NCBI GenBank assembly: GCA_965199945.1
Contig: OZ241354.1
Location: 996,638 to 1,060,637, forward strand
Source of the DNA: Candidatus Azotimanducaceae bacterium
Lineage (GTDB): Bacteria > Pseudomonadota > Gammaproteobacteria > Pseudomonadales > Azotimanducaceae
Direction: 5' to 3'
DNA length: 64,000 bases
A program made the position numbers and the translations under genes. This document shows, in pieces, positions 5,101-20,219 of the stretch. Within the stretch, counting starts at the first letter, position 1; every line of letters starts with the position of its first letter. The notes beneath the pieces were generated by a model that made no database searches, had not been told where the DNA came from, and saw nothing but the letters and a program-made list of their open reading frames with translations.

Positions 5101-5119
5101 AGGTGCGGACGAAAAAGTG

Positions 5120-5167
5120 CCCCGGCGACAAGGGGGATGGGGGAGGGAGGGGATGTCGTCGCCGGGG
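5120..5167 (+). terminator. Candidate stem-loop downstream of the ydbT-like gene, with a G-tract-rich loop
   Basis: CCCCGGCGAC (5120-5129) pairs with GTCGCCGGGG (5158-5167). The loop contains GGGGGATGGGGGAGGGAGGGG. No U-tail follows, so terminator function is uncertain. Confidence 0.3.
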
Positions 5168-5402
5168 CGTATATCGGGATGGATGCCTTGCTGCGCCTGT
5201 GGGTCGTCCGCTTGCTTCAAGCCGCCGCTACGTTTTTCGGAAACACTCTAAACGGCACATCCTGGCCGCAGCCTAAGGCGCATGTCTGAAATCCTGTGCT
5301 CCATTGACCATTTGTTGCTTGGGACAACGCCGAGCAAGCGAAAGTTCAGCCATTGCGATGGAGATGCGATGGAGGCAGGATGGAAGCAGGGTGGAAGAGA
5401 CC

Positions 5403-6434: not shown

Positions 6435-6953
6435 AAGTCGTCCAACGTGACGAACGTGCCATTCGCCTCTGCCCACTCGCGCATCCGGCGGTTGCAGCTG
6501 TGCCGCCACGACAGCACCTCGATGCGCCAACCGCGCCTGCGCATTCGCTCCAAGTCGGCGTGGAAGCCAACGCCGTCGTCGAATCCGGCGCCGTCGCCGG
6601 TGAGCATGACGGCGATTCCGGGGTTGCCGTTGTAGTCGAATCCGTCGCGGAGCATTGCCGTTTGCAGGGCTTGGTCGACGCCTTGCTCGCGACCATGCAG
6701 CGAGCCGCGTTCCAACAGCTGGACAGTGACGCCTTCGTTCTCCCAAGCGATTCCATACGTGGCGGAGTTCCGGCGGCACGGAGCCCACGGCGGTCGCGTG
6801 CTCGATGGAGCGTTCTGCCCGTGCGAGCTCGAGCAGGTGACCGAAGTGGATGCGCACGCGCGAGCGGGCGCCTTGGCCTTCCCGCTCCATGGCGACGTAC
6901 TGCGCGCCGATGAAGACGTTGGAGTTGTCCCAATAGATGAATACGCTGTCCAT
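6323..6953 (-). pseudogene. NYN-domain (LabA-like) ribonuclease gene split by a 1-nt frameshift
   Basis: The N-terminal half (MDSVFIYWDNSNVFIGAQYV...VPPELRHVWNRL) lies in the frame of ORF 5409..7010. The C-terminal half (ENEGVTVQLLERG...GIAVMLTGDGAGFDDGVGFHADLERMRRRGWRIEVLSW) lies in the frame of ORF 6323..7000. Removing one C from the CCC run at 6742-6744 restores ...WNRLENEGVTV.... Confidence 0.75.
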
Positions 6954-7110
6954 GATGTCTTCTCGGAAGGGCGGCCTGCGGCGCTCGCGGCTAGATCCAC
7001 AAATCGTCAATGCCCTACCGTATTGGCGGCCCGCACCACCGTCAACGACCGTGCCGGCCGTTCAAGAGCCGCCGGTTGCGCCCGCAACCCAACCCGCCTA
7101 CGCTTGCCGC

Positions 7111-7719
7111 ATGACCAAAGTCAAGAACGAGAGCCTTCATGCCGCGCTGGGCGAAGGCGATCTTCGGGCGCGGTGCGTTGCGCTGCGGGAGGCGTGTCCC
7201 TGTCGCAACGGTGGCACGCGGGAGGATCTTGCGCTGTGGCGCGAGGTCTTCGAGCGGGCGTCGAAGGGTGGCCGGCGCGAGCGTCGGGCGGCGGCCCATG
7301 CCATTGGCACGCTCACCGAGAAGGCGAAGACGAGCGACGAGTGGCGCGGCCTGCTGCACGATCTGCGCGACGATCTGGACGCACTGCTGCGCGACCCGCG
7401 GGCGTCGCAGCAGGTGCTCGGCACGATGAAGCGGCATGGCCACGCCCATCGGGGCGCGGCGCGCAAGAACTACCGCCGCCGGCGCAAGGCGCTGGACTTG
7501 GCCACGCCCGAAGAACTGGCGGCTTGGGTGAACCGCCGCTGGCAGCTCTCCAAGAGCCAAGCGCTCACCGCCCAGGACGCGGGCGTGCGCCGCCTTTTCC
7601 AGTGGCTGCGCCACCGCGTGGACTTCCAGCCCGAGCGCGCCACCAAGGAGAGCGAACTGGCCAAGCGCGCCACGCGCTATCTGCCAATGCTCCTCGGCTG
7701 CGAACGGCAGGCGGCCTGA
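7111..7719 (+). CDS. Hypothetical protein (202 aa, helical, Arg-rich)
   Basis: Within ORF 6937..7719. ATG 7111 (MTKVKNESL...) chosen because upstream codons overlap the NYN gene start region. No motif recognised. Confidence 0.45.
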   Translation: MTKVKNESLHAALGEGDLRARCVALREACPCRNGGTREDLALWREVFERASKGGRRERRAAAHAIGTLTEKAKTSDEWRGLLHDLRDDLDALLRDPRASQQVLGTMKRHGHAHRGAARKNYRRRRKALDLATPEELAAWVNRRWQLSKSQALTAQDAGVRRLFQWLRHRVDFQPERATKESELAKRATRYLPMLLGCERQAA

Positions 7720-7875
7720 GGGCGATTGCGCCGAATCTTCGAGAGGATCGGCAGTCGAGCCGCCGGGCGCGGCGCTCGCGCCGGCCCTGCCCAACGCCCA
7801 GCCACCCCGTCGCAAAGCACCGTGAAAGCGGCGACCGTAGGCGCTTGAAAACCGCCCCTTCCCTCCGCATCCGGC

Positions 7876-7881
7876 TATAAT
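7876..7881 (+). promoter_or_regulatory. Perfect TATAAT hexamer 30 nt upstream of the GAPDH start (candidate -10)
   Basis: Sequence is ggcTATAATccgcc. No good -35 element at 17-bp spacing. Confidence 0.25.
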
Positions 7882-7910
7882 CCGCCGCACACGCCGCCCG
7901 AGGTCTCGCC

Positions 7911-9410
7911 GTGGCACTGCCCAACCTAGAGGACTACTTCCCAGACTGGAAGGAGCGCGAAGCGCTTGCGGAGGCGATGATTCCCATCATCGGGCGCCTC
8001 TACCGCAAGAATGTCGTCGTCTACTGCTACGGGCGGGCGCTCTACAACAAGAGCGTCACGGACATCATGAAGGCGCACCGCTTCGTGCGCCAAGTGGCGC
8101 AGAACGAGCTTTCGGAGTTCGAGAGCTACCCCATCCTGGAGGCCATGGCGCAGCTGGACATCGGCACCTCCCACGTCGACGTCGGCCTCTTGGCGGTGGA
8201 CTACATGGAGCGCACCGCCAAGGGCGAGTCGCTCACGCCGCTCGAATACACGCGCCAAGCCTGCGCGCAGGTCATCGGCCGCCACGCGCAGCCGCTGGCC
8301 AAGCCGCGCGACGTGGTGCTGTTCGGCTTCGGGCGCATCGGGCGGCTGCTGGCGCGGTTGCTGATCGAGAAGACCGGCAGCGGCGATCAGCTGCGCCTGC
8401 GCGCCATCGTGCTGCGCCCCGGGCGGCCGGACGACCTCGCCAAGCGCGCCGCCCTGCTGCGCCGCGATTCCGTTCACGGCTCCTTCCGGGGAACCATCCG
8501 CGTGGACGAACAGAACCAGTGCCTCATCGCCAACGGCAACGTCGTGCGCGTCATCTACGCCGACGACCGCGCCAGCATCGACTACACGAGCTACGGCATC
8601 GACGATGCGCTGCTGATCGACAACTCCGGGCGCTGGCGCGACCGCGCCGGCTTGGGCGCGCACTTGCAGTCCAAGGGCATCTCCCGGGTGCTGCTCACCG
8701 CCCCCGGCAAGGCCGGCGTGCGCAACATCGTCTCCGGCGTGAACTCGCATCTGGTGCAGGACGAAGACGGCGTGCTCGCCTGCGGCTCCTGCACCACCAA
8801 CGCCATCGTGCCGGTGCTGAAGGCGGTGCACGACCGCTGGGGCATCGCCCACGGCCACATGGAGACGATCCACGCCTACACGCCGGATCAGAACCTGCAC
8901 GACAACTACCACAAGAGCGACCGGCGAGGCCGCAGCGCGCCGCTCAACATGGTCATCACCGAGACGGGCGCGTCGAAGGCCGTCACCGAGCTGCTGCCGG
9001 AACTCGAAGGCAGGCTCACCGGCAATGCCATCCGCGTGCCCACGCCGGACGTCTCCCTCGCCGTGCTGAACCTGGCGCTGATGCGCGAGGCAAGCTGCGA
9101 CGAAGTGAACGCCTACCTGCGCGACACGGCGCTGTATTCGTCCTTGCAGCGGCAGATCGACTACACCTCGTCGCGGGAGCGCGTCTCCAGCGACTTCATC
9201 GGCAATCGCCACGCCTGCGCCATCGACGGCGGCGCCACCTTGGCCGCTGGCAACCGCGTGGTGCTCTACGCCTGGTACGACAACGAGTTCGGCTACGCCT
9301 GCCAAGTGGTGCGCGTGGCGCAGAAGTGGGCCGGCATTCGCTATCCGCTGATTCCCGGCGACGTGGCGCGCACCGGATTCGACGAGCTGCGCACGGCCGC
9401 CGCCGGCTGA
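7911..9410 (+). CDS. gap: Glyceraldehyde-3-phosphate dehydrogenase, long form with N-terminal extension
   Basis: ORF 7911..9410. Catalytic GSCTTNAIVP, Rossmann VVLFGFGRIGR, and an N-terminal REALAEAMIPIIGRLYRKNVV extension as in the roughly 480-aa pseudomonad-type GAPDH. Confidence 0.9.
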   Translation: MALPNLEDYFPDWKEREALAEAMIPIIGRLYRKNVVVYCYGRALYNKSVTDIMKAHRFVRQVAQNELSEFESYPILEAMAQLDIGTSHVDVGLLAVDYMERTAKGESLTPLEYTRQACAQVIGRHAQPLAKPRDVVLFGFGRIGRLLARLLIEKTGSGDQLRLRAIVLRPGRPDDLAKRAALLRRDSVHGSFRGTIRVDEQNQCLIANGNVVRVIYADDRASIDYTSYGIDDALLIDNSGRWRDRAGLGAHLQSKGISRVLLTAPGKAGVRNIVSGVNSHLVQDEDGVLACGSCTTNAIVPVLKAVHDRWGIAHGHMETIHAYTPDQNLHDNYHKSDRRGRSAPLNMVITETGASKAVTELLPELEGRLTGNAIRVPTPDVSLAVLNLALMREASCDEVNAYLRDTALYSSLQRQIDYTSSRERVSSDFIGNRHACAIDGGATLAAGNRVVLYAWYDNEFGYACQVVRVAQKWAGIRYPLIPGDVARTGFDELRTAAAG

Positions 9411-9464
9411 ACGCGCCCGGCGTGGTTCCTGCCGCTGGGCGAGCCGCGAGGTAGGAGACGCATC

Positions 9465-9773
9465 ATGCACATCGGCGTGCTCGCCCTGGACTTCCATCTC
9501 GACGGCTGCGCGTCGTTGAAGGAGAAGCGCCGGCGCTTGGGCCGGCTGCGCGACAAGTTCGGCCGCATCGCCAATCTCGCCGTCTGCGAGAGCGCCTATC
9601 AGGACAGCCACCGCCGGGCGCGCTGGGAGATCGTCGCCGTGGCGGGCGATCCGAGCGTGGTCGAGAAGTCCTTGGCCGACGTGGAGCGGTGGGCGGCGAT
9701 GAGCGTCGATGCGACCATCGTCGACGCGGCGCGCAGCACGGCGTTCGGCGACATGGGCAGGGCGGCGCGCTGA
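9465..9773 (+). CDS. DUF503 family protein (YlxP-like)
   Basis: ORF 9465..9773. MHIGVLALDFHLDGCASLKEKRRRLGRLRDKF matches the DUF503 pattern. AGGAGA sits upstream of the ATG. Confidence 0.7.
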   Translation: MHIGVLALDFHLDGCASLKEKRRRLGRLRDKFGRIANLAVCESAYQDSHRRARWEIVAVAGDPSVVEKSLADVERWAAMSVDATIVDAARSTAFGDMGRAAR

Positions 9774-10201
9774 TGCTCTGGGCGCTGCTGCTGGGCTTCG
9801 GCCTGCTCGCGCTGATCTGGTGGCGCAGCGCCGGCCGGGCCCGCGAGAACTGGCTGCACGACTTGAGCCTCGTCGGCAAATGGGAACTCGAAACGCCCGA
9901 TACGCTGCAGGAGCACACGCGGCGTTCGCTGACCTTCAGCGGCGATCTCGCGTCCGGGCGCTACGTCGCCCGCGACGGCGATAACGTCCACCGCGGCAAA
10001 TGGCGCTTGAGCGGACACACGCTCGCGTTGGAGCCGCTCGAATCCGAAGCGGGAGACCATCCCGGCGCCGCGCAATTCGACCTGCGCCTGTTCGCGCACG
10101 GGCGCATCGGCATCGACGGCCCGGGACGCGAGCGCGAGACGTACCGCAAACGCGAAGGCAACGTGATTCCGCTGGCAAGACGCCCTCGGCGCCGGGGATG
10201 A
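9773..10201 (+). CDS. Small membrane-anchored hypothetical protein
   Basis: Within ORF 9689..10201. The ATG at 9773 overlaps the DUF503 stop (TGATG). N-terminal TM helix MLWALLLGFGLLALIWW. Confidence 0.5.
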   Translation: MLWALLLGFGLLALIWWRSAGRARENWLHDLSLVGKWELETPDTLQEHTRRSLTFSGDLASGRYVARDGDNVHRGKWRLSGHTLALEPLESEAGDHPGAAQFDLRLFAHGRIGIDGPGRERETYRKREGNVIPLARRPRRRG

Positions 10202-10245
10202 CGTCCCGCCGCGCGCAGCCTTGAGGGACGCGGCCCTTTAGCCCG

Positions 10246-12099
10246 ATGGCGCCGGCCGATGTCGAGCCTCCGCCGGCGGCGACGGGCGGCGCCGCGGACG
10301 TGAAGCACTTCCTCGCCACGCTGACGACGCGGCCCGGCGTCTACCGCATGGTGGGCGACGGCGACGAGGTGCTGTACGTCGGCAAGGCGCGCAATCTCAA
10401 GGCGCGGGTCACGTCCTACTTCCGCGCTTCCGGCCTCGCGGCGAAGACCCTCGCCCTCACCTCCAAAGTGCGCGACGTGCAGGTGACGGTCACGCCAAGC
10501 GAGACCGAAGCGCTGCTGCTCGAACAGAGCCTCATCAAGGAACACCGGCCGCGCTTCAACGTCGTGCTGCGCGACGACAAGTCCTATCCCTTCATCCACC
10601 TCACCGAGCATCCCTATCCGCGCCTCGGCTTCCATCGCGGCAAGAAGGGCAGCGGGCGCTACTTCGGACCGTTTCCGAGCGCGGCTTCCGTGCGCGACAG
10701 CCTGAACATCCTGCAGAAGCTGTTCGGCATCCGGCCCTGCGCCGACGGCTTCTTCAAGAACCGCTCGCGGCCTTGCCTGCAATACCAGATCAAGCGCTGC
10801 AGCGGCCCGTGCGTGGGCTTGATCGACCGCGAACGCTACGCCGAGGACGTGCGCCTGGCGGTGCTGTTCCTCGAAGGCAAGAGCGCGGACGTGCTGGCCG
10901 AGTTCAAGCGGCGCATGGACGCCGCTGCGGAAAAGCTGGAGTTCGAGCGCGCCGCCCGCCATCGCGACCAGATCAGCCATCTGCGGCGCATTCAGGAGAA
11001 CCAGTACGTCCACGGCGAAGGCGGCGACGTGGACGTCTTCGGCGTGGCGGTGGGCGCCGGCCATGCCTGCGTGCAGGGCCTGTTCGTGCGCGGCGGGCGT
11101 CTTCTCGGCCACCGCACCTGGTTTCCGGGCAACCAGCTGGACGTCGCCGAAGACGAGCTGCTCGTCGCGTTTCTCTCCCAGTACTACCTGGGCGGAGCGG
11201 CGCGGGAAGTGCCGCGCACCGTGGTCGCCGCGGCGCCGCCCGAGGAAGCGCAGCTGCTCGGCACCGCGTTGTCGGAGCGCACCGGGCGCAACACGGAGGT
11301 GGCCTCCCAGGTGCGCGGGCAGCGCGCGCGTTGGGCGGCAATGGCCACGGAAAACGCGCAGTTGGCGCTCGATGCACTGGTCGCCGACCGCAAGAACGTG
11401 TTTGGCCGCTTCGTGGCGCTGCAAGCCGCCCTCGGCTGGGAAGACGTGCCGCGGCGTCTCGAATGCTTCGACATCAGCCACTCCGCCGGCGAGGCCACCG
11501 TCGCCTCGTGCGTCGTCTTCGACAGCAACGGGCCGCTCAAATCCGACTACCGGCGCTTCAACATCGAAGGGGTGCCGAGGAGCGACGACTACGGCGCCAT
11601 CGAGCAGGCCATCCGCCGCCGCTACACGCGCCTGGCGCAAGGAGAGGGCGTCCTGCCGGATGCGCTCGTCATCGACGGCGGCAGCGGCCAGCTGCGGCGC
11701 GCCGCCGAGGTGCTGGAACAGCTGCAGGTGAAGGACGTGGCGCTCATCGGCATCGCCAAGGGCCCCACCCGCAAGGCCGGGCTGGAGACCATCGAAGTGG
11801 CGGGCATTGGCGAACTGGCGCTGCCGCCGAACGGCCCGGCCATGCACCTGCTGCAGCACATCCGCGACGAAGCGCACCGCTTCGCCGTCGCCGGCCATCG
11901 CGGTCGGCGGCAGAGAAAGCGGCGTCAATCGGCCTTGGACGACGTGCCCGGCGTCGGGCCGAAGCGCAAGCGCGAGCTGCTGGCGCACTTCGGCTCCGTC
12001 GTGGCCATCAAGGGTTCGAGCGTTGAGGAGATCGCCAAAGCGCCGGGCATCAGCCGCAAGCTGGCGACGGACATCCACGGCGCCCTGCATGGCGAGTAG
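10246..12099 (+). CDS. uvrC: Excinuclease ABC subunit C
   Basis: ORF 10246..12099. GIY-YIG region GVYRMVGDGDEVLYVGKARNLKARVTSYF, UvrBC-interaction region, and C-terminal HhH (LDDVPGVGPKRKRELLAHFGS). Confidence 0.95.
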   Translation: MAPADVEPPPAATGGAADVKHFLATLTTRPGVYRMVGDGDEVLYVGKARNLKARVTSYFRASGLAAKTLALTSKVRDVQVTVTPSETEALLLEQSLIKEHRPRFNVVLRDDKSYPFIHLTEHPYPRLGFHRGKKGSGRYFGPFPSAASVRDSLNILQKLFGIRPCADGFFKNRSRPCLQYQIKRCSGPCVGLIDRERYAEDVRLAVLFLEGKSADVLAEFKRRMDAAAEKLEFERAARHRDQISHLRRIQENQYVHGEGGDVDVFGVAVGAGHACVQGLFVRGGRLLGHRTWFPGNQLDVAEDELLVAFLSQYYLGGAAREVPRTVVAAAPPEEAQLLGTALSERTGRNTEVASQVRGQRARWAAMATENAQLALDALVADRKNVFGRFVALQAALGWEDVPRRLECFDISHSAGEATVASCVVFDSNGPLKSDYRRFNIEGVPRSDDYGAIEQAIRRRYTRLAQGEGVLPDALVIDGGSGQLRRAAEVLEQLQVKDVALIGIAKGPTRKAGLETIEVAGIGELALPPNGPAMHLLQHIRDEAHRFAVAGHRGRRQRKRRQSALDDVPGVGPKRKRELLAHFGSVVAIKGSSVEEIAKAPGISRKLATDIHGALHGE

Positions 12100-12247
12100 C
12101 GCTGCTGGACGCCGCTCGAGAACGCGCGGTGCGATGCGCCGCGCGGTGGCGTAGCATGGCGTTCGTTCCGTTGCGCGAGAGCAAGCCGCGCCGGCTTGTC
12201 GCGGAAAGGCACGGAAGCAACGGCGAAGCCAGCAGCTGGATAGACGC

Positions 12248-12811
12248 ATGACGAGCCTTCCGAACGTCCTCACGCTGGCGCGCATCGGGCTCATCCCGGT
12301 CTTCGCGCTGATCTACGTCGTCACGGACACCTACTACTGGGTGGCGGCGCTGCTGTTCGCCACGGCGGCGGCAACGGACTGGATCGACGGCTACCTGGCG
12401 CGGCGCCTCGGCCAGACCACGCCCTTCGGCACGTTCCTGGATCCGGTCGCGGACAAGCTCATTGTCGTCACCGCGCTGGTGCTGCTGATCGGCAACCACG
12501 CCAGCCTGTGGCTGACAATCCCCGGCGTCGTCATCGTCGGCCGGGAAATCGCCATCTCCGCGCTGCGCGAGTGGATGGCGGAAATGAATCGCCGCGGCCT
12601 CGTCGCCGTCACTTGGACCACCCGCGTAAAGACCGCCATGCAGATGGTCGCGATCATCATCCTGCTGGCGAACCCGCCGGCGATGGTGCCCTGGGTGGTC
12701 GTCGGCCTCGTGCTGCTCTACGCGGCGGTGTGCATCACCACATGGTCGATGGTCGTCTACCTGCGCGCCGCTTGGCCATCGCTCAAGGAAGGGCTGTACG
12801 AGTCGCGGTAG
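12248..12811 (+). CDS. pgsA: CDP-diacylglycerol--glycerol-3-phosphate 3-phosphatidyltransferase
   Basis: ORF 12248..12811. CDP-alcohol phosphatidyltransferase motif DWIDGYLARRLGQTTPFGTFLDPVADK. The uvrC-pgsA-tRNA synteny matches enterobacteria. Confidence 0.93.
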   Translation: MTSLPNVLTLARIGLIPVFALIYVVTDTYYWVAALLFATAAATDWIDGYLARRLGQTTPFGTFLDPVADKLIVVTALVLLIGNHASLWLTIPGVVIVGREIAISALREWMAEMNRRGLVAVTWTTRVKTAMQMVAIIILLANPPAMVPWVVVGLVLLYAAVCITTWSMVVYLRAAWPSLKEGLYESR

Positions 12812-12921
12812 CCGCTGTCTGCCGTGCGAACGGCGCACCAGTCCGAACGCGCTTCGGCTTCGTTCGCGCGCCTTGTGGTAGCATTTCCGAACTTGCCGGA
12901 GCTTGCCGCTTCGCGCATCTC

Positions 12922-12995
12922 GGCTGGATGGCAGAGGGGTTATGCAGCGGACTGCAACTCCGCGTACGCCGGTTCGAATCCGACTCCAGCCTCCA
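12922..12995 (+). tRNA. tRNA-Cys (anticodon GCA)
   Basis: GGCTGGA acceptor stem pairs with TCCAGCC, followed by T and CCA. Anticodon arm is GCGGA-CTGCAAC-TCCGC. T-loop is GGTTCGAATCC with one C-A mismatch in the T stem. The D region resembles E. coli tRNA-Cys. Confidence 0.85.
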
Positions 12996-13061
12996 ACACC
13001 TCCCGACGCAGCGCTGGCGCACCGAGAGCCGTCGCAGCGGGGTTCGCAAGGCTTGGAAGAG

Positions 13062-13148
13062 TGGTGCCTAGGGAGAGACTCGAACTCTCACATGGTTTCC
13101 CATACCAGATTTTGAGTCTGGCGCGTCTACCGATTTCGCCACCTAGGC
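13062..13148 (-). tRNA. tRNA-Leu (anticodon CAA), long variable arm
   Basis: The reverse complement reads GCCTAGGTGGCGAAATCGGTAGACGCGCCAGACTCAAAATCTGGTATGGGAAACCATGTGAGAGTTCGAGTCTCTCCCTAGGCACCA. This is a class II tRNA with a CUCAAAA anticodon loop. Confidence 0.92.
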
Positions 13149-13214
13149 AGGCGAGACGTGGATTCTGCGCCAACGAACGCCGGAGTCAACCCGCTAGTCT
13201 TGCGCGGCTTGGGG

Positions 13215-13246
13215 CTACGCGTCGCAATCCAGCCGATTGGTCGAGA
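13215..13246. repeat. Direct repeat copy 1 (att-like): orphan duplicate of the cytochrome c gene 3' end
   Basis: CTAcGCGTCGCAATCCagCCGATTGGTCGAGA matches 20220-20251 at 29 of 32 positions. On the minus strand it reads ...STNRLDCDA-stop, against ...STNRADCDA-stop at the real gene end. Confidence 0.8.
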
Positions 13247-13257
13247 GTGACGATCTT

Positions 13258-15111
13258 CTAGAAATCCAGAAACTGCAGCGCCCGCATGAGCGGGCCGGGT
13301 TCTGGCCGGGCGCGGAAGGTGTTCGCGTCCAGGCGTTCGAGCAGGCTCGCCATGTCGACGTAGCCGGCCCGCGAAGGCGGCTGCGCAGTTAGCAACGCGC
13401 GAATCGTCGGGAACTGCGCCACCAGCGCGTCCACAAACGGCTCGCTGCGCGCCGGATCCCGCTTCTGCGTGTTCCAGCAGACTTCCGGCGGCAGCACTGT
13501 GCGCATGGCGTGGCGGAACAGCCACCGGGTGTGCTTGCCGCGTCGGAACTGCTCCGGCGGCAGCCCCAGGGCGAACGCCACGAGCCGCCGGTCCAGCAGC
13601 GGATAGGCGTATTCGATGCCGCGCCGGGCGCCGCTGGCCGCCCAGCCTTCCATGCGCGCGGTGAGATGGCCGTTGGCAAGCAGCCCCAGCTGCACGCGGC
13701 GAACGCTAACTGGCCGGCGCTGGGGAACCGTCAGCAGCCGCGTCCGTCGCGCGAACGCGGGGTCGATCAGCCAGCGGCGACGCGGCCCCTCCCGGCCACG
13801 CAGCCGGCGCAGCCGCTCCGGCAGCGCCGGATGCAACAGCGGCAGCGCGACGTTGGCGAGGAAGGGCGCCAAGGCGGCGTCCTGCGCTCGGCACTCGAGA
13901 GCCAACTGCCGCCAACGGCCGCGCAGCAGCAGGCCCTGCAGATGGCCCCGGCCGCCGAACGACGCGCACTCGTCGCCGCCCCAGCCGGAAAGCAGCAGCC
14001 GCACGCCGGCCGCCGCCGCATTGCGCTGCACGATTTCCTCGTTGGGATGGACGTGAATGCCGGGCACGGCGCCGTCCTGGCGCAGCACGCCGAGCAAGTC
14101 GTCCGGCGTCGGCGCGCCGAAGCAGACGCGTAGCCGTTCCTGCCCGCGCACCGCGTCCACCAAGGCGTACTCCGGCGCATGGTCGGGCTTCGGCGGTGCC
14201 GCCCCGAGCGCCGGCAGCCAGGCGAAGGCTGCCGGCGCAGGCCGTCCCTGCTCGCGCAACTCCCGCGCCAGCAATACCGCGATGCTCGACGAATCGAGGC
14301 CCCCGCTCAGATGCGCGCCGACTTCGCCGGCGCCGTAGCCGCGCAGCCGGTCGCGCACGGCCTGCCTGCACAGCGCACGCAGCTGTTCCGCATAGGCATC
14401 GTCCGATGCGGGAGGCTGGCTGGGCGCGTCCTCCGGGCGCCACCAGCGGCGCCGGCGCAGCCGTGGTTCGCCCGCCGCGCCGTTGCGCTGGCTCTCGACC
14501 AGAAGCGAGCAGCCGGGCGGCAGCTTGCGGACGGCGGCGAAGAAGCTCTGCTCCGAGCTCGCCGACGAACTGGCCAGATGCGTGGCGACGACCGCCTCGT
14601 CCAGCGCCGGCGGAACGCCCGGCGCCGCAAGCACGGCCTCGACGGTGGAGGCGAAGAGGAAGGCGCCGCCCTGCACGGCGTAGTAGAAGGGACGGACGCC
14701 GATGTGGTCGCGAGCGCAGAACAGCGCCCGGCGCTGCCCGTCCCAGAGCGCGAACGCGTAGTCGCCGAGCAGCCGGCGCGGACACTCCTCCCCCCACTGC
14801 CGCCAAGCGCGAAGGATCAGCGCCGCGTCGGAGACGGCGCCACGTTCGGCGACGGCAACGCCCAGCGCGTCGCACAGCGCCTGCCGATCGTCGAGGCGGG
14901 CGTCCGCGACCACCGCCAAGCCGGCCTGCCGATCCGCGTACAGCGCGGCGAAGCCGTCTGGCCGTTGGCCGTTTCGGCAGCCGAGGCCGACCCCGCCATC
15001 CGCCGGCGACCATTGCTCCGAGGCACCCGGGACGTGGGCTTCCAGCGCCCCCAGCAGGGCCGGCAGCGCCTTCGGCCCACCGCCCACGCTTCCGCAGATC
15101 GCCGCAGCCAT
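13258..15111 (-). CDS. Asparagine synthetase-like protein, lasso-peptide-cyclase (C protein) type
   Basis: ORF 13258..15111. N-terminal Ntn-like MAAAICG, PP-loop HLSGGLDSSSIAVL, and the overall AsnB-like layout. Adjacent to a PqqD gene. Confidence 0.8.
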   Translation of the reverse strand: MAAAICGSVGGGPKALPALLGALEAHVPGASEQWSPADGGVGLGCRNGQRPDGFAALYADRQAGLAVVADARLDDRQALCDALGVAVAERGAVSDAALILRAWRQWGEECPRRLLGDYAFALWDGQRRALFCARDHIGVRPFYYAVQGGAFLFASTVEAVLAAPGVPPALDEAVVATHLASSSASSEQSFFAAVRKLPPGCSLLVESQRNGAAGEPRLRRRRWWRPEDAPSQPPASDDAYAEQLRALCRQAVRDRLRGYGAGEVGAHLSGGLDSSSIAVLLARELREQGRPAPAAFAWLPALGAAPPKPDHAPEYALVDAVRGQERLRVCFGAPTPDDLLGVLRQDGAVPGIHVHPNEEIVQRNAAAAGVRLLLSGWGGDECASFGGRGHLQGLLLRGRWRQLALECRAQDAALAPFLANVALPLLHPALPERLRRLRGREGPRRRWLIDPAFARRTRLLTVPQRRPVSVRRVQLGLLANGHLTARMEGWAASGARRGIEYAYPLLDRRLVAFALGLPPEQFRRGKHTRWLFRHAMRTVLPPEVCWNTQKRDPARSEPFVDALVAQFPTIRALLTAQPPSRAGYVDMASLLERLDANTFRARPEPGPLMRALQFLDF

Positions 15112-15145
15112 GCCGTCTTCGCTTCCCGCCTCGGCGGCGCCCCGG

Positions 15146-17044
15146 TCAGCCTAGGAACGCCAGCGCCTCGTCGAGATAGCCGAACTTGGCCATCACCTCG
15201 CCGTGCGCGTCCACCAGCGCCCGCACCTGCTGCCGGGTCAGCGCCGAGCGCCAGGAGCCGGCCACGCCGGCGCGGAAGAAGGACTTCGCCGTCGGCGGCT
15301 TCTCGACGAAGCCGAACTCGGTCTCCTGCGCCTGCAGCCGCGCGAAGCTGCTGCGCTCCACAGCTTGGCGCAGCCGCGCCGGATCCTCGCCGAGGCCAAC
15401 GAAGCGAACGATCGCCGCGAATCCGGCTCGCGGACGCGCCAGCAGGTCTTCGTAGCGGGCGACATGGACGGGAATGGCCGTCTGTTCGGTCCAGCTCGAC
15501 ACATGGCCGCTCCAAGTGGTCAGCAGCTCTGGAAAGCGTCCGAAGGCGCCTCCTCGGATGTGCGATTCAAAGCTGCCGTCGCTGTTCATCCAGCCAACAA
15601 TGCGGTCGATGGAGACGTTGCCGTGATGCGCGAAGGAGACGGCGACGTCGAGGGGATTGCGCACTAGGCACACCGCGCCGCCGGTCTTCGGAAACCGTGG
15701 GGCGCGTGGTGCAGCGCGGTAGGCATCGTGGGTCTTCAGGACGAGCGGGTCGCCGTCGTGCGGATGTGCCGCGGGTGGCCCCGCGTTTCCGCCGCCTTCG
15801 GCCAGCCATTCGCGGAACTGCGGCAGATGGCGCTCCACTTCGGCCTCCGTCATGTTCGTGGACTCCGCTCCGAGAAACTCGTCGAAGGCTTGGCGGTGGT
15901 TGCCCCGACCGCCAAGCAGCGCGTTGATGGAGGCCGGCGCGCCGTCTCTGCTCGAGTAGTTGGTCAGCACGGCCCGCAGCCAAGTGTTGCCGCTCTTCGG
16001 GTAGGACGCGAGCCAAACGATGCCCGGCGCGTCGGTATGACCCTGCCTGACGGCAGCGGGCACCTTGGCGGCGACGCGCCGCACGGGCGTGGATCGACTC
16101 CGGGCCGAGGAGGCGCTTGGCCGCCAGCCCGGGGTCGGCTGCAACGTCCTCAGTTGCGCATCGACGCGGGCCGCCAGCGCTTCCAAGGTGAACGGATGCC
16201 GAGGTCGCGTTGCCAACAGCATCGGCACGCGCCGCGCCAGGGCGGTGACGGTGCGGAAGTGCCCCGCGGTACCGCCTATCGCGTCCAGCGCCCGCTTGCG
16301 GTGCGTGTTCTCCGTCAGTGCCCAGAACGCGTCGCCGCAGGACACGAGGCGGATGTCGATTTCCGCGGCGGTGCCTTCGGCCAGTGCGACGGCGGCGAGC
16401 ACCGGCTGCGGCTCGGCACAGTAGCGCTCGGGCTCGGTCCAGTGCTTGTCCAGGCCCTGGCGCACTCTCGCGCCGGCCTGTGCGCGCCAACCCATCCTGT
16501 CCAGCGTCTGCGCCCACAGTTTTTGGCGCGGAAAAGCCGGCAGAGCCAGCGGTTGGCCGCCGGCGTCCAGCACTACGCCGGTGATGTCGTCGGCCAGCAG
16601 CGCATGGCCGCGTCGAACCAACGCCGCCGCCAGCGACGACTTGCCGACGGCGCTCGGGCCAAGCAGCAGCACCGCGCCGCCTTGCCGTGCGACGGCCGCC
16701 GCGTGCAGCGTCGCCACGCCTCTTTGCTGCAGGCAGGGAGCAAGCGCGGCGCTGACGAAAGTGGAGGCCACGTCGCCGGCGTCTCCGAGCGGATCGACCA
16801 GAATGTCCCTGCCGCCTGTGGCCAGGTACCGGACGACGCCTTCGAGCTCGATGAGAAAGGCGCCCGGGCGGGCTTCCCAGATTGGGCCTTTGGTCGTTTG
16901 GCCAGCGCCGGCGGGGAGGGTGCGCGGGACGGCGCCGAGGCGAACGGTCAAGTCTGGCGCGGACGATGGCTTCGGCTGCAAGGGATGGAACGGCAGCGCA
17001 ACGGCGGAGCGCACATGCAGACCGTAGGCGCGGTATTCGTGCAT
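15146..17044 (-). CDS. Fusion protein: N-terminal HPr-kinase-related kinase domain plus C-terminal sulfotransferase domain
   Basis: ORF 15146..17044. The N-terminal half has the HprK-like P-loop LLLGPSAVGKSSLAAALVRRGHALLADD. The C-terminal half has the sulfotransferase PAPS motifs SYPKSGNTWLR (5'-PSB) and VRNPLDVAVSFAHH (3'-PB). The domain boundary is near nt 16050-16150. Confidence 0.8.
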   Translation of the reverse strand: MHEYRAYGLHVRSAVALPFHPLQPKPSSAPDLTVRLGAVPRTLPAGAGQTTKGPIWEARPGAFLIELEGVVRYLATGGRDILVDPLGDAGDVASTFVSAALAPCLQQRGVATLHAAAVARQGGAVLLLGPSAVGKSSLAAALVRRGHALLADDITGVVLDAGGQPLALPAFPRQKLWAQTLDRMGWRAQAGARVRQGLDKHWTEPERYCAEPQPVLAAVALAEGTAAEIDIRLVSCGDAFWALTENTHRKRALDAIGGTAGHFRTVTALARRVPMLLATRPRHPFTLEALAARVDAQLRTLQPTPGWRPSASSARSRSTPVRRVAAKVPAAVRQGHTDAPGIVWLASYPKSGNTWLRAVLTNYSSRDGAPASINALLGGRGNHRQAFDEFLGAESTNMTEAEVERHLPQFREWLAEGGGNAGPPAAHPHDGDPLVLKTHDAYRAAPRAPRFPKTGGAVCLVRNPLDVAVSFAHHGNVSIDRIVGWMNSDGSFESHIRGGAFGRFPELLTTWSGHVSSWTEQTAIPVHVARYEDLLARPRAGFAAIVRFVGLGEDPARLRQAVERSSFARLQAQETEFGFVEKPPTAKSFFRAGVAGSWRSALTRQQVRALVDAHGEVMAKFGYLDEALAFLG

Positions 17045-17230
17045 CGAACCCGAGCCAACATCTGCTTAAGACATCACGATGAGGTAATACGCCGAGTTTC
17101 CAATAGCGTATCACCATTCGGCCCCGATCCTGTCGCTCGAAGATTCCTGCCGGCCCAGATGGTCGGCTTGGACCAAGGCAGCTTGCGGGTGCCGGCTACG
17201 CCTTCCGAGACACGTCTGCCCTCGGCGTTC

Positions 17231-17284
17231 TCAATCCCTTCGCCTTCGGGGGGGGGGGGGGGGGGGGGTCAATTCATCACGCAT
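17231..17284 (-). other. 17-codon ORF spanning the poly-C tract (MRDELTPPPPPPRRRRD); the reading frame depends on tract length
   Basis: My own translation of the minus strand. With 20 or 23 C the ORF would extend to a stop at 17074-17076 (about 69 codons). With 22 C it ends after PKAKGLRTPRADVSRKA. No evidence it is expressed. Confidence 0.15.
17248..17268. repeat. Homopolymeric tract, 21 G (poly-C on the strand of the flanking genes)
   Basis: Counted directly: 3+10+8 G at 17248-17268. It lies in the 288-nt gap between the PqqD stop (17333) and the kinase-sulfotransferase start (17044). Confidence 0.95.
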
Positions 17285-17332
17285 CAGATAATCCCAAGAT
17301 TGAACCAGTGCAGGCGTCCGGACGCGCCAGAT

Positions 17333-17650
17333 TCAGGAAGCCGACGGCAACGCGAAGATGCGCTGTTCCAAGCCGGCCTGCAGAAACTCCAACGTGTCGC
17401 GCTCGCAAGTCTCCGCATCCACGTCGTATTCGCCGGCGAGGGCGTCGCAGATGCTGCTGGCCGATCTGGGCTCCTCGAGCAGAGTCCAAGCGCGCGAGGC
17501 GACCGGATCGAGCTCGTAGTATTGGCCTTCGTCGACGTCCACCATCACGACGGTGTCGTACAAGCGCGTGAACACGATGGCATCGTTGCGCGCAATCACC
17601 GACGAGAGCGCCACTCTCGGCTGCCCTTCGTCTTCGCTGGCGGCAGACAT
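17333..17650 (-). CDS. PqqD-family peptide chaperone (RRE / lasso B1-like)
   Basis: ORF 17333..17650. AIVFTRLYDTVVMVDVDEGQYYELDPVASRAWTLLEEPRSASSICDALAGEYDVDAETCERDTLEFLQAGLEQRI matches the PqqD pattern. Confidence 0.8.
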   Translation of the reverse strand: MSAASEDEGQPRVALSSVIARNDAIVFTRLYDTVVMVDVDEGQYYELDPVASRAWTLLEEPRSASSICDALAGEYDVDAETCERDTLEFLQAGLEQRIFALPSAS

Positions 17651-17812
17651 CCGCGTTCATCCCATTGCCCAGCCGAGCAGGATCATAACGCAAACCGCCA
17701 CCGTTTCAACAGCCTTCACAGCCTTCCCACGGGCGCATCGCAAGCCTCGACTCTGTCCGCCAAGACCGTGCCCACCGGCGCGGGGACAGAACCGGGCGCG
17801 GCCTCGGCCGCG

Positions 17813-17866
17813 ATGAACCATGCTACTTTCACCGCCGACGAGAGCGCGAGGGGCACCCTCGCATGA
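17813..17866 (+). other. Conserved 17-codon upstream ORF (MNHATFTADESARGTLA) ahead of Uma2 copy 1
   Basis: Same length and position as 19009-19062 (MNHATFASDENARGTRA). Both end in TGA inside the first GCGAGGG..CCCTCGC-type hairpin. Confidence 0.3.
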
Positions 17867-17912
17867 AGGGAGCCCTCAGCGGGGAGCGCGAGGGGCACCC
17901 TCGCTTGTAAAA
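17845..17912 (+). repeat. Two hairpin repeat units (GCGAGGGGCACCCTCGC) in the 5' leader of Uma2 copy 1
   Basis: The repeat unit is AGCCCTCAGCGGGGAGCGCGAGGGGCACCCTCGC. The 7-bp stem GCGAGGG/CCCTCGC has a 3-nt loop. Confidence 0.7.
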
Positions 17913-17925
17913 GGAGAACAGCCAC

Positions 17926-18843
17926 ATGAGAGCGCCTCCGCCGGTCAGCGCGGCCGCGGCCGCCGCCTCGAATGTCGGCGCAACCCGCGCGGACGACGTG
18001 TTCTATCCGAGCTCGGACGGCAGGCCGATGGCGGACGACATGTGGCAGGGGACAGCCCTCAGGAGCGCCGCCGGCGATCTCGAAGCGGTGCGCCCGACGG
18101 CGCTGGTGGCGTGGGCCATCCTGGTGTACCCGGAGGAGGGGAACAACAAGAACCGCATCGCGTCGGACGTGCTGGTGGGGCTTGGACTGGGAACGCACAA
18201 CCGATCGAGCTACTTCGTCTGGGAGGAGGGCAAGCCGCCGGACTGGGTTCTGGAGGTGGCGTCGCCCCGCAAGCAGGCGGAGGACCGGGGCTACAAGCGG
18301 CGCTACTACGCGGAGATGGGCGTGCCGGAATACTGGATGTTCGATCCCAAGGGCGACTTGTACCCGCCCGGGATCCCACGGCTGCAGGGGCTGAAGCTGG
18401 TGGACGGCGAGTACCGTCCGTTGGAATCGCGGGTGGTGGACGGCGAGTGGACGATCCGCAGCGAGGTGCTGGGCCTGGATATCCGCGTGGATGGCGAGCT
18501 GCTTCGCTTCCGGGACGTCGCGACGGGCCGGGATGTCCTCCGCCGCAGCGAGGTCGAGGCGGCCATTGAACGGTACCAGGCGGCCACTAGACGGCACCGG
18601 GCGGCCACTGAACGGCACCGAGCGGCCACTGAACGCGCCTTGGCGGACGCCGAACGGCACAGGGCGGCCACTGAACGCGCCCGGTCTAGGCGGGAAGCCC
18701 TGCGCAAGGCCGCCGAAGTCCGCGCCGAGCAGGAAAAAGCCCGGGCCGAGCAGGAAGCTACCCTTCGCTCGGCTGCCGAGGCTCGCATCGCGGAGTTGGA
18801 GGCTGCACTGCGGCGCTCAAGGGCGGGCCATCCCGCTGAATAG
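17926..18843 (+). CDS. Uma2-family (DUF820, PD-(D/E)xK-like) endonuclease with C-terminal heptad-repeat extension, copy 1
   Basis: ORF 17926..18843. YPSSDGRPMADDMWQ...SDVLVGLG...PDWVLEVASP...KRRYYAEMGVPEYWMFDP is typical of Uma2. The C-terminal tail is ERHRAATERHRAATER...AEQEKARAEQEA. RBS AAGGAGA precedes the ATG. Confidence 0.8.
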   Translation: MRAPPPVSAAAAAASNVGATRADDVFYPSSDGRPMADDMWQGTALRSAAGDLEAVRPTALVAWAILVYPEEGNNKNRIASDVLVGLGLGTHNRSSYFVWEEGKPPDWVLEVASPRKQAEDRGYKRRYYAEMGVPEYWMFDPKGDLYPPGIPRLQGLKLVDGEYRPLESRVVDGEWTIRSEVLGLDIRVDGELLRFRDVATGRDVLRRSEVEAAIERYQAATRRHRAATERHRAATERALADAERHRAATERARSRREALRKAAEVRAEQEKARAEQEATLRSAAEARIAELEAALRRSRAGHPAE

Positions 18844-19008
18844 CCGCTGACAGTCGCTCCCGCAGGTCTTTCGCGCATCCGATCGCCGCGATTTCGCACA
18901 CGACGCATGGCGATTGTCCTACAGACGGGCGCATTTCAAGCCCCGACACTGTCCGCCGAGACCGTGCCCAACGGCGCGGGGACAGAACGGGGCGCGGCCT
19001 CGGCCGCG

Positions 19009-19062
19009 ATGAACCATGCTACTTTCGCCAGCGACGAGAACGCGAGGGGAACCCGCGCATGA
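19009..19062 (+). other. Conserved 17-codon upstream ORF (MNHATFASDENARGTRA) ahead of Uma2 copy 2
   Basis: Paralogous to 17813-17866, with the same length. Confidence 0.3.
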
Positions 19063-19185
19063 GAGCCCTCAGCCGGGAGCGCGAGGGGAACCCTCGCAAG
19101 CAAGGAGCCCTCAGCGGGGAGCGCGAGGGCACCCCTCGCATGTAAAGAGCCCTCAGCAGGGAGCGCGAGGGGAACCCTCGCATGA
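19040..19185 (+). repeat. Four hairpin units, three of them in a 42-bp tandem array, in the 5' leader of Uma2 copy 2
   Basis: AGCCCTCAG starts at 19064, 19106 and 19148 (period 42). Each unit carries a GCGAGGGG-N-CCCTCGC palindrome. One degenerate unit lies at 19041-19057. Confidence 0.75.
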
Positions 19186-19202
19186 AGAAGGAGAACAGCC
19201 AC

Positions 19203-20150
19203 ATGAGAGCGCCTCTGCCGGTCACCGCGGCCGCGGCTGCCGCCGCCTCGAACGTCGGCGCCGTGCGCGTGGACGACGTGTTCTACCCGAGCTCGGACGG
19301 TAGGCCGATGTCGGACAACATGTGGCAGGGGAAAGCCATTACGAACGCCGACGGCGACCTCGAATCGGCCCACCCGAAGGCGCTCGTGGCGGCGGACATC
19401 CTCGTGTACCCGGAGAAGGGGAACAACAGGAACCGCATTGCGCCGGACGTGCTGGTGGCGCTCGGGCTGGGAATGCACTACCGCTCGAGCTACTTCGTGT
19501 GGGAGGAGGGCAAGCCCCCGGACTGGGTTCTGGAGGTGGCGTCGCCGAGCACGAAGAAGAAGGATCTGGACGACAAGCGGCGCAAGTACGCGGAGATGGG
19601 CGTGCCGGAGTACTGGCTGTTCGATCCCAAGGGCGACGTTTACCCGCCCGGGACGCCGCGGCTGCAGGGGCTGAAGCTGGTGGACGGCGAGTACCGTCCG
19701 CTGAAGTCGCGCCTCGTGGACGGCAAGCGGATGATCCGCAGCGAAGTGCTGGGCTTGGACGTGCGCGTGGATGGCAAGCTGCTCCGCTTCCGGGACGTCG
19801 CGACGGGCCGGGACATCCAACATCGCAGCGAGGTCGAGGCGGACAAGAAACGCGCCCTGGCGGCCATTGAACGGCACCGGGCGGCCACTGAACGCGCCCA
19901 CGCGGCCACCGAACGCGCCCACGCAGCCACCGAACGCGCTCAAGCCCAGGCCAGGCAGGAAGCTGCGCAGCGCAAGAACGCCGAAGCCCACGCCAAGCAG
20001 GAAGCGGCCCGCGCCGAACAGGAGGCGGCCCGTGCCAAGCAGGAGGCCGCCCGTGCGGAACGGGAAGCTGCCCTTCGCTCGGCTGCCGAAGCGCGCATCG
20101 CGGAGTTGGAGGCCGCGCAGCGGCTCCCGAAGGGCGGGCCATCCCAGTGA
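19203..20150 (+). CDS. Uma2-family endonuclease with C-terminal coiled-coil extension, copy 2 (tandem paralogue)
   Basis: Within ORF 19182..20150. The ATG at 19203 is positionally equivalent to 17926 (GAAGGAGAACAGCCACATG). The protein is collinear with copy 1. Confidence 0.8.
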   Translation: MRAPLPVTAAAAAAASNVGAVRVDDVFYPSSDGRPMSDNMWQGKAITNADGDLESAHPKALVAADILVYPEKGNNRNRIAPDVLVALGLGMHYRSSYFVWEEGKPPDWVLEVASPSTKKKDLDDKRRKYAEMGVPEYWLFDPKGDVYPPGTPRLQGLKLVDGEYRPLKSRLVDGKRMIRSEVLGLDVRVDGKLLRFRDVATGRDIQHRSEVEADKKRALAAIERHRAATERAHAATERAHAATERAQAQARQEAAQRKNAEAHAKQEAARAEQEAARAKQEAARAEREAALRSAAEARIAELEAAQRLPKGGPSQ

Positions 20151-20219
20151 ATAGCCACTGACCTGCGATTTGCCACACACCCTCGCCGCGCGTCGGCGAA
20201 AGTCGGCGCTGTGCCCGAG

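Follow-up and report, generated by a model that had tools for sequence, protein, structure and literature searches.

A putative kinase-tailored lasso-peptide cluster with a fused kinase-sulfotransferase and a poly-C tract in its precursor gene in an Azotimanducaceae bacterium

On which peptide do a PqqD-type chaperone, an asparagine-synthetase-like protein and a kinase fused to a sulfotransferase act, when neither a precursor nor a leader peptidase (B2) is apparent beside them? This question is raised by a locus in a 64-kb stretch of DNA (64,000 nucleotides of contig OZ241354.1, in its entirety called the window here) from Candidatus Azotimanducaceae bacterium. An earlier note, made from the sequence alone, had described the three enzymes, the last of them as a single protein of 632 amino acids (aa), and all three turn out to be real and intact (Pfam, NCBIfam and PDB matches). 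The same note had seen no convincing precursor, and in this it was mistaken, as a precursor gene lies between the PqqD gene and the fusion. All cluster genes are on the minus strand, in the 5' to 3' order PqqD, precursor, kinase-sulfotransferase (K-ST) fusion and asparagine synthetase (AsnSyn) homologue. On balance it seems probable, with considerable room for doubt, that the region is a compact operon (B1-A-K/ST-C) of the kinase-tailored lasso-peptide family, in which expression of the precursor is probably switched by a poly-C tract. The features concerned are the following (RiPP, ribosomally synthesised and post-translationally modified peptide; PAPS, 3'-phosphoadenosine-5'-phosphosulfate):

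17333-17650, minus strand: B1, a PqqD-family RiPP recognition element (RRE) of 105 aa (Pfam, NCBIfam and PDB matches)
17074-17284, minus strand: A, the precursor peptide gene, with an ATG at 17284 (MRDELT), a poly-Pro tract, leader, core and the stop TGA at 17074-17076
17248-17268, minus strand: pure C21 homopolymer (G21 on the plus strand), coding for the poly-Pro segment of the leader (precursor codons 6-12)
17158-17184, minus strand: conserved leader motif K-L-P-W-S-K-P-T-I, of which W-x-x-P-x-[ILV] is kept in precursors of more than 60 loci
17077-17127, minus strand: predicted core SGPNGDTLLETRRITSS, 17 aa, following Thr(-2)-Gly(-1) and ending in Ser (from the family alignment)
15146-17044, minus strand: K-ST, HprK-like kinase fused to a PAPS-type sulfotransferase, 632 aa (Pfam domains)
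16145-17044, minus strand: kinase half of K-ST, approximately residues 1-300
15149-16027, minus strand: sulfotransferase half of K-ST, approximately residues 340-632
13258-15111, minus strand: C, an asparagine-synthetase-like macrolactam (lasso) cyclase homologue of 617 aa (Asn_synthase, GATase_7, NF033535)

The precursor was recognised through its relatives. A one-genome-per-species scan for loci related to the cluster returned 80 of them (these and further related loci are given L numbers below), which span Gamma- and Alphaproteobacteria, Acidobacteriota, Binatia, Gemmatimonadota, Chloroflexota, Cyanobacteria, Bacteroidota, Planctomycetota, Verrucomicrobiota and Firmicutes. Running jackhmmer over all stop-to-stop segments of these loci, followed by a simple pattern search, gave a precursor family in more than 60 loci, adjoining the enzyme set in many phyla. 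Its leaders follow the pattern K-[KR]-x-W-x-[KR]-P-x-[IL]-[R], 6-9 residues and then T-x, and its cores the pattern [SGA]-G-(6-9 residues)-E-[N]-x-x-Y-(2-6 residues)-S, with a C-terminal Ser in nearly all members. For loci that contain B2 the pattern yields textbook lasso cores, e.g. ...TEDTA|SGGLSSFLENTNYYPNTISVS in L033 (Thr at -2, Ser1-Glu9). With a hidden Markov model (HMM) built from precursors of other lineages only, a single one of the 863 six-frame segments of the window was matched (E = 1.3e-5), namely the minus-strand stop-to-stop segment 17077-17268, which reads ...TRKLPWSKPTIWAGRNLRATG|SGPNGDTLLETRRITSS and is conserved in orthologous loci. Written out with its tract, the peptide of the window reads (P)7EGEGIENAEGRRVSEGVAGTRKLPWSKPTIWAGRNLRATG|SGPNGDTLLETRRITSS. 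It has the W-S-K-P-T-I leader, Thr(-2)-Gly(-1), Ser1, the conserved Glu at position 10 and an Asp at position 6 (or 7, with a start at Gly-1), it ends in ...SS, and its ATG is out of frame as assembled. The K-L-P-W-S-K-P-T-I segment is the probable binding site of the RRE, as it resembles the aromatic-x-x-P-x-L motif that lasso leaders carry.

The gene was overlooked in the first reading because the pure C21 run puts the ATG one base out of frame with leader and core. The only small open reading frames (ORFs) that had then been named in the gap, 17231-17284 and 17111-17176, do exist, but the precursor gene in truth begins with the former (the poly-C ORF), while the latter (a TTG ORF reading GRQESSSD...) is in the wrong frame and has no homologues, the precursor HMM matching the frame of 17077-17268 only. 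That ATG, poly-Pro tract and leader belong to one gene follows from in-frame homologues in L005/L006 (MRDVIPPPPPEAEA...KPWSKP...), L008 and L012. A small ORF in L005 reads MRDVIPPPPPEAEAVSGGQKPWSKPQVHRI...YDPNIS; its N-terminus is that of the poly-C ORF of the window (MRDELTPPPPPP...), and its middle is that of the other frame of the window gap (...KLPWSKPTIW...). As regards other starts, none is in frame between the upstream stop and the tract in the window, and an ATT that is preceded by GAAGG in some alleles is not conserved in L167/L169. The 'gap' between PqqD and K-ST in which all this is found measures 288 bp and contains no known RNA element according to Rfam, whose matches are two tRNAs only.

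The enzymes on either side point to the lasso family as well. For the PqqD protein (Pfam PqqD, 1.8e-18) the top NCBIfam models are lasso B1 models (lasso_PqqD_Bac at 54 bits, which is under the 80-bit cut-off), the nearest solved relative is the lasso RRE TbiB1 (PDB, 5e-15), and a B1 HMM from related loci matches at 1e-39. The AsnSyn homologue, with its Asn_synthase and GATase_7 domains, has the lasso cyclase NF033535 as its top NCBIfam match (317 bits, 1.9e-94), far above other families though under the 525-bit cut-off, and is homologous to the cyclases of B2-containing loci (e.g. 7e-93 for L033). Its N-terminus reads MAAAICGSVGG, and since the Cys of the glutaminase-type domain is thus not at position 2, the protein fits a non-glutaminase (i.e. 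lasso-cyclase-like) role.

In the fusion, Pfam places Hpr_kinase_C at residues 112-156 and Sulfotransfer_1 (PF00685, 79 bits versus a 22-bit cut-off) at residues 343-622. The kinase half has the motif GPSAVGKS, in a P-loop region that matches HprK/P structures, and the His-Lys-Asp-Asp set (H114, K135, D152, D153) that has been reported as a motif of lasso-tailoring kinases (PMC9266682). Among 14 aligned homologues, H114 is kept in 12 and the other three residues in all. Equally invariant (14/14) are K350 in PKSGNTW (5'-phosphosulfate-binding motif, 5'-PSB), the catalytic H439 in KTH, and R462 and S470 in RNPLD...S (3'-phosphate-binding motif, 3'-PB). The nearest solved structures to the sulfotransferase half are the glycopeptide sulfotransferases TEG12, Teg14 and StaL, and phenol SULTs, at a similarity of only ~50 bits. 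Like StaL, TEG12 and Teg14, it has the cytosolic-type PAPS sulfotransferase fold with 5'-PSB, catalytic His and 3'-PB motifs; these enzymes sulfate phenolic hydroxyls of peptide antibiotics, and the domain in the window differs from them in its low similarity (~50 bits) and in being fused to a kinase. A sulfated RiPP is known from Xanthomonas (RaxST/RaxX).

The earlier note had allowed for the fusion being two genes joined by a sequencing error and had proposed a database search for other fusions, which has now ruled the error out. Of the 201 relatives that a protein search gave, the best 120 consist mostly of full-length fusions at 44-93% identity, several of which lie on complete chromosomes; with more than 100 full-length fused homologues, complete chromosomes included, the fusion is not a sequencing artefact. 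That one enzyme both phosphorylates and sulfates the peptide is a reasonable prediction from these domains.

Kinase, sulfotransferase, PqqD and AsnSyn homologue co-occur in ~60 loci of many phyla, and the PqqD and AsnSyn genes adjoin in nearly all loci with enough flanking sequence. Kinase and sulfotransferase are separate, adjacent genes in distant phyla and fused in a proteobacterial and acidobacterial group. After clustering of the neighbour genes and a scan of representatives against Pfam, the recurrent neighbours were Transglut_core3 (i.e. B2, 48 genes in 36 loci), NTP_transf_5 (20 loci) and an Asp/Asn beta-hydroxylase (14 loci), with B2 being carried by most of the distant relatives. Because the enzymes and precursors grade continuously into clusters with B1, B2, C and kinase (in Chloroflexota, Bacteroidota, Firmicutes and others), the cluster is a variant of the kinase-tailored lasso family and not a new class. 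The cluster type as such is known, whereas the fused kinase-sulfotransferase, the clade without B2 and the conserved poly-C tract of the precursor are not described. The idea of a different, undescribed system, which had been raised before, is only partly right.

Kinase-tailored lasso clusters have been described from Firmicutes and Proteobacteria (PMC8498205, PMC9266682, PMC5067487, PMC6993621), in the order A B1 B2 C K D, which is that of the known proteobacterial ones, or C A K B1 B2 D (PMC5067487). As in paeninodin (pade), pseudomycoidin (psm), ThcoK and SyanK, the window encodes an HprK-like kinase with His-Lys-Asp-Asp, a split-B-type PqqD RRE and an Asn-synthetase-like cyclase homologue, and its precursor shares with theirs the W-x-x-P-x-I/L leader motif, Thr at -2 and the C-terminal Ser that is the known phosphorylation site (PMC8498205, PMC9266682, PMC6993621), the kinases acting on this Ser in the linear precursor (PMC8498205, PMC9266682). 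In contrast to those clusters, the one in the window has kinase and PAPS-type sulfotransferase in a single protein, it includes no B2, ABC exporter or nucleotidyltransferase, and its leader is long, with a poly-Pro segment encoded by pure poly-C. Sulfotransferase genes have been mentioned only as uncharacterised neighbours in Firmicute clusters (PMC8498205).

The poly-C switch is the most interesting and at the same time the least certain element of the cluster, although the existence and purity of the tract itself are solid. The C21 run is the sole homopolymer of at least 8 nucleotides (nt) in the window. It leaves leader and core in the +1 frame relative to the ATG at 17284, and C20 or C23 would restore the frame. 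As only 27% of the Pro codons in the window are CCC (60% are CCG), seven consecutive CCC codons are not an effect of codon usage. In 1.22 Mb of related loci, C/G runs of at least 10 nt occur 24 times, ~20 of them at the tract position of precursor genes, and a pure poly-C tract of 11-24 nt is found at the 5' end of precursor genes in gammaproteobacterial, alphaproteobacterial and Binatia metagenome-assembled genomes (MAGs). The lengths listed here are assembly-level, most of the related genomes being long-read MAGs in which homopolymers are error-prone:

L001: C24
L002: C18
L003/L004: C15
L168: C17
L167: C11 (short-read scaffold)
L169: C5 and C19, on the two sides of a 10-N scaffold gap within the tract
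L005: C16 and C17
L006: C19 and C15
L008: C21
L171: C15
L009: C24
L010: C14
L012: C19
L014 (Binatia): C18
L021: C18+10 and C22
L025 (Alphaproteobacteria): C16 and C18

Within the lineage of the window, lengths of 11, 15, 17, 18, 21 and 24 occur. The window, L001 and L002 have nearly identical flanks and tract lengths that are exact multiples of three apart. Lengths also differ between two strains of a single sample, L005b (C17) being out of frame versus L006b (C15) in frame, next to a second pair of C16 versus C19, and within an Azophilus-like pair (L008 with C21 in frame versus L171 with C15 out of frame). Altogether, the conserved upstream ATG is in frame in ~6 of 20 copies, as would be expected for random phase. 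Such tracts were not present in 80 more distant loci (at most 44% identity, from a metagenome alignment scan), and a metagenome scan for close relatives, using a single protein, found none. The alphaproteobacterial MAG of L025 has at least seven paralogous precursor genes around one enzyme set (4100-14900), two with pure poly-C (C16 and C18) and the rest with degenerate Pro-rich segments at the same position.

Slipped-strand contingency tracts of poly-C/G are well established in the phase variation of Neisseria, Bordetella, Haemophilus and Campylobacter, host-adapted pathogens in which contingency loci govern surface antigens, restriction-modification systems and similar traits. The tract of the precursor gene is similar in that it is a C/G homopolymer in a 5' coding region, the length of which varies among close strains and shifts the frame; it differs in that the gene concerned encodes a RiPP precursor, the bacteria are environmental ones, and the tract is conserved across classes and phyla and known from assembled lengths only. 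On long C runs, transcription may slip as well, or tRNA-Pro may slip by +1/-1 on CCC-C in the ribosome, and the translation of poly-Pro depends on EF-P. The register geometry in the window suits a +1 shift (CCC-CGA to CC-CCG-AA, which brings GAA into the A site). Since tract length varies and sets the frame of the start codon, the tract is probably a hypermutable expression switch, through which the peptide would be produced stochastically by slipped-strand mispairing and/or slippage on CCC-C. In the literature searched there is no case of phase variation or homopolymeric tracts tied to lasso or other RiPP precursors.

A number of observations weigh against reading the region as a lasso operon with such a switch. 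As regards the switch, individual ON/OFF states are uncertain because homopolymer lengths are error-prone in long-read MAGs, the short-read scaffold of L169 has its 10-N gap exactly inside the tract (2750-2765), all six independent alleles of the lineage of the window are out of frame (P = 0.09 under random phase), and the search for a frameshift-stimulating RNA structure 3' of the poly-C gave a fold no better than shuffled sequence (z = +1.0). As regards the product, both cyclase and RRE score under the curated lasso cut-offs of NCBIfam, and from the residue after Thr-x to the conserved Glu there are 10 positions in the window, versus 9 in most relatives and 10-11 in some; Glu10 is a spacing beyond known ring sizes, unless Asp6/7 is the acceptor or cleavage takes place at another site. 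In the literature searched, neither a characterised lasso sulfotransferase nor a sulfated lasso peptide has been reported. Finally, most of the clade with the fused enzyme has no B2 within 7-10 kb (L007-L012, L014, L018-L023, L028, L170, L171), and as the window has none either, the cluster does not account for leader removal.

The first of these points could simply mean that the precursors are truly in frame and that the homopolymers have been miscounted in long-read or short-read assemblies, in which case the poly-C would merely encode a poly-proline segment of the leader. Tracts of 14-24 nt are past reliable calling on most platforms, many of the loci are on long-read MAG chromosomes (some with 3-5x coverage), some MAGs have apparent frame breaks in the kinase-sulfotransferase gene too, and the gap in L169 would also be in line with it. 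Against it, the short C11 tract of L167, from a short-read scaffold, is out of frame as well, the other genes of the window and of L001-L004 are intact, and the lengths in the window, L001 and L002 differ by multiples of three and not by random amounts. Judging from contingency loci, pure C runs of at least 15 nt are expected to be hypermutable in vivo, also where their assembled length is wrong. We therefore hold miscounting to be a somewhat unlikely explanation; if it were correct, an uncharacterised but ordinary kinase-tailored lasso sub-family with poly-proline leaders would remain.

The out-of-frame alleles could also indicate a decaying remnant, i.e. a once-canonical lasso cluster that lost B2 and its exporter and of which the precursor is now a pseudogene beside enzymes still without lesions. 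The precursor of the window has in fact two lesions relative to the family consensus. Besides the OFF register of C21 as assembled, it carries a private 1-nt deletion at the Glu10 codon region, by which the tail is changed relative to sister alleles (...LLETRRITSS, with the conserved Asn and Tyr gone and the C-terminal Ser kept), so that this particular copy may be silent or give an atypical product. The sister alleles, however, retain the full E-N-x-x-Y-Y...S core: it reads SGPNSDTQFENTAYYLIVTS in L001/L002, SGPTGDTQNENSFYYLIVTS in L169, SGTQINTLENTHYYMPITS in L168, SGTASQSTENTHYYNVFTS in L167 and SATQINTVETSFYYIPITS in L003. Moreover, leader, Thr(-2) and C-terminal Ser are conserved, pure poly-C is kept across phyla, contrary to neutral decay, and the three enzymes are intact in at least seven related assemblies. 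In comparison with L001 and L003, PqqD has a ratio of nonsynonymous to synonymous substitutions (dN/dS) of 0.10-0.15, the fusion one of 0.28-0.34 and the cyclase one of 0.32-0.37, next to 0.07-0.08 for uvrC; with intact enzymes at 0.10-0.37, i.e. under purifying selection, the cassette is maintained by selection as a lineage. What still speaks for decay, next to the lesions and the six alleles, is the lack of B2, transporter and isopeptidase in the 64 kb and the presence of mobile elements beside the cassette in sister genomes; but the B2-less state is common to a wide clade and hence not a recent loss. Taken together, decay is unlikely.

The absence of B2 itself, as claimed in the earlier note, is borne out for the window: an HMM made from the 48 Transglut_core3 (PF13471) neighbours of related loci had no match in its six frames. 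Neither did the HMMs for the nucleotidyltransferase and the hydroxylase, and no transporter or isopeptidase was found in the 64 kb. B2, nucleotidyltransferase and hydroxylase are likewise missing from the orthologous loci L001-L004 (fusion 84-93% identical, uvrC 98%) and from L167-L169. The proposal that the cluster was truncated where the Uma2 genes now lie can be set aside. What lies to the left of the cassette varies: the window, L002, L003 and L169 have Uma2 genes there, L001 has both Uma2 and an IS481-type transposase, and L168 has a transposase of the ISAzo13 type, while in L167 the downstream context is different. Yet the unit B1-A-K/ST-C is constant in the seven related assemblies (L001-L004 and L167-L169), and intact cassettes thus occur beside other flanks. 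Together with the largely B2-less clade and the dN/dS of the enzymes, this makes the missing B2 a property of the clade. In L008, L012, L170 and L171 neither PqqD nor B2 is present within 7-10 kb, just precursor, fusion and AsnSyn homologue.

Whether the B2-less clade makes lasso peptides at all can be questioned on the same grounds, as its AsnSyn homologue and kinase-sulfotransferase might make another product, for example a peptide that is left uncleaved, or is cleaved in another way, and bears a side-chain lactam or amide. Apart from B2, PqqD is lacking within 7-10 kb in some loci, the spacing from the putative N-terminal residue to the conserved Glu varies (9-11), and the cyclase is under the curated lasso cut-off. 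The precursor family and all enzymes are nevertheless homologous to those of B2-containing clusters, Thr(-2), a recognition residue of B2 and cyclase, is kept in most B2-less precursors, and lasso cyclase is by far the top-scoring family for the AsnSyn homologue, which makes a non-lasso product distinctly improbable. A partial precedent for maturation without B2 is pseudomycoidin, for which a lasso macrolactam was formed in vivo without leader peptidase and bulky C-terminal modifications may hold the fold (Zyubko et al. 2019, PMC6993621). The psm cluster, in contrast to the window, does encode B2, and its B2 independence applies only with a leaderless core being expressed (PMC6993621), whereas the precursor of the window has a leader of ~50 aa that is still to be removed.

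Membership of the TIGRFAMs 'HPr-rel-A' (HprK-related kinase A / PqqD) system, to which the earlier note had pointed, has next to no probability, as the match of the kinase to TIGR04352 HprK_rel_A is weak (33 bits) and far under the 200-bit cut-off, the PqqD protein has lasso B1 models and not the HPr-rel-A PqqD as its best NCBIfam matches, and the neighbourhood is lasso-type. The SynChlorMet system gave sub-threshold NCBIfam matches only.

For the kinase-tailored lasso operon that we prefer, a sequence of events can be proposed on the basis of homology. The length of the poly-C at the 5' end of the precursor gene would set the frame of the start codon, so that the peptide would be made in a stochastically switched or slippage-dependent manner. 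The RRE would bind the K-x-W-x-K-P-T-I segment of the leader, and the HprK-like domain would (poly)phosphorylate the C-terminal Ser of the linear precursor, by analogy with PadeK, ThcoK, SyanK and PsmK. The sulfotransferase domain may move sulfate from PAPS to a hydroxyl of the core, possibly that of the conserved Tyr of E-N-x-x-Y, which is the likeliest target because the nearest solved relatives sulfate phenols on peptide antibiotics. The leader might be cut after Thr(-2)-x by a protease encoded outside the cluster, either a B2 elsewhere in the genome or another enzyme, and the AsnSyn homologue would close a macrolactam between N-terminus and Glu/Asp. More tentatively, and possible at best, a clade of lasso-type clusters in Gamma-, Alphaproteobacteria and Binatia could have evolved three traits together, namely a hypermutable poly-C switch or a slippage/EF-P gate, maturation without a dedicated B2 and sometimes without an RRE, and a bifunctional enzyme that phosphorylates Ser and sulfates the core (probably at Tyr).

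If the proposed switch is real, RiPP production would be under bet-hedging control of the contingency-locus type. To our knowledge, such control has so far been tied to surface antigens of pathogens and not to natural-product biosynthesis in environmental bacteria. Precursors of this kind would systematically escape genome mining with tools such as RODEO and antiSMASH, since in two thirds of them the start codon is in another frame and the tract interrupts short-read assemblies; the gap inside the tract of L169 suggests that such genes are likely to be broken or lost there. The fused enzyme would represent an undescribed lasso tailoring pair of sulfation and phosphorylation, its product would be the first phospho-sulfo lasso peptide, and the cluster would be a naturally occurring system in which to study how a leader is removed when no B2 protease is linked.

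Several further observations concern the wider clade. The commonest neighbour in B2-less loci is the Asp/Asn beta-hydroxylase (PF05118; L007, L009, L010, L012, L014, L018, L020-L023, L028 and L073), which is absent from the window and which may act on the conserved Asn of E-N-x-x-Y. L005/L006 have a larger cluster (3500-17900) with three precursor genes (two with poly-C), two AsnSyn homologues, a PMT_2 glycosyltransferase, a TPR protein, an NTP_transferase, a Sulfotransfer_3 and a SIS-domain gene. It also encodes a 366-aa protein with a HEALH (HExxH) motif, possibly an alternative protease, of which L014 and L019 have copies too. As a general substitute for B2 it was rejected, being confined to L005/6, L014 and L019, without a Pfam match and absent from the window.

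Two further features flank the cluster in the window:

17682-17709, minus strand: candidate sigma-70-like promoter TTGAAA-16-TATGAT upstream of PqqD, found by consensus scan with 10/12 matches (a pattern match only)
13062-13148, minus strand: tRNA-Leu(CAA), the downstream boundary of the cassette (ARAGORN and Rfam)

Mobile elements near the cassette in sister genomes include an IS481-type transposase, an ISAzo13-type transposase and a Gp49-like toxin pair (L001 6241-7224, L168 1068-2297, L003 11969-12530, L167 4572-5516), and one copy of the cassette is placed in other chromosomal surroundings and followed by a NifU/Fe-S gene. With this traffic and the moved copy, the cassette behaves as a movable unit beside tRNA-Leu. 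The two Uma2-family genes of the window (17926-18843 and 19182-20150, plus strand) form a tandem duplication of ~1.25 kb that includes their upstream regions (81-91% identity, window 17722-20162), and both contain an array of 21-nt repeats (7 aa, ERHRAAT-like) in their 3' part.

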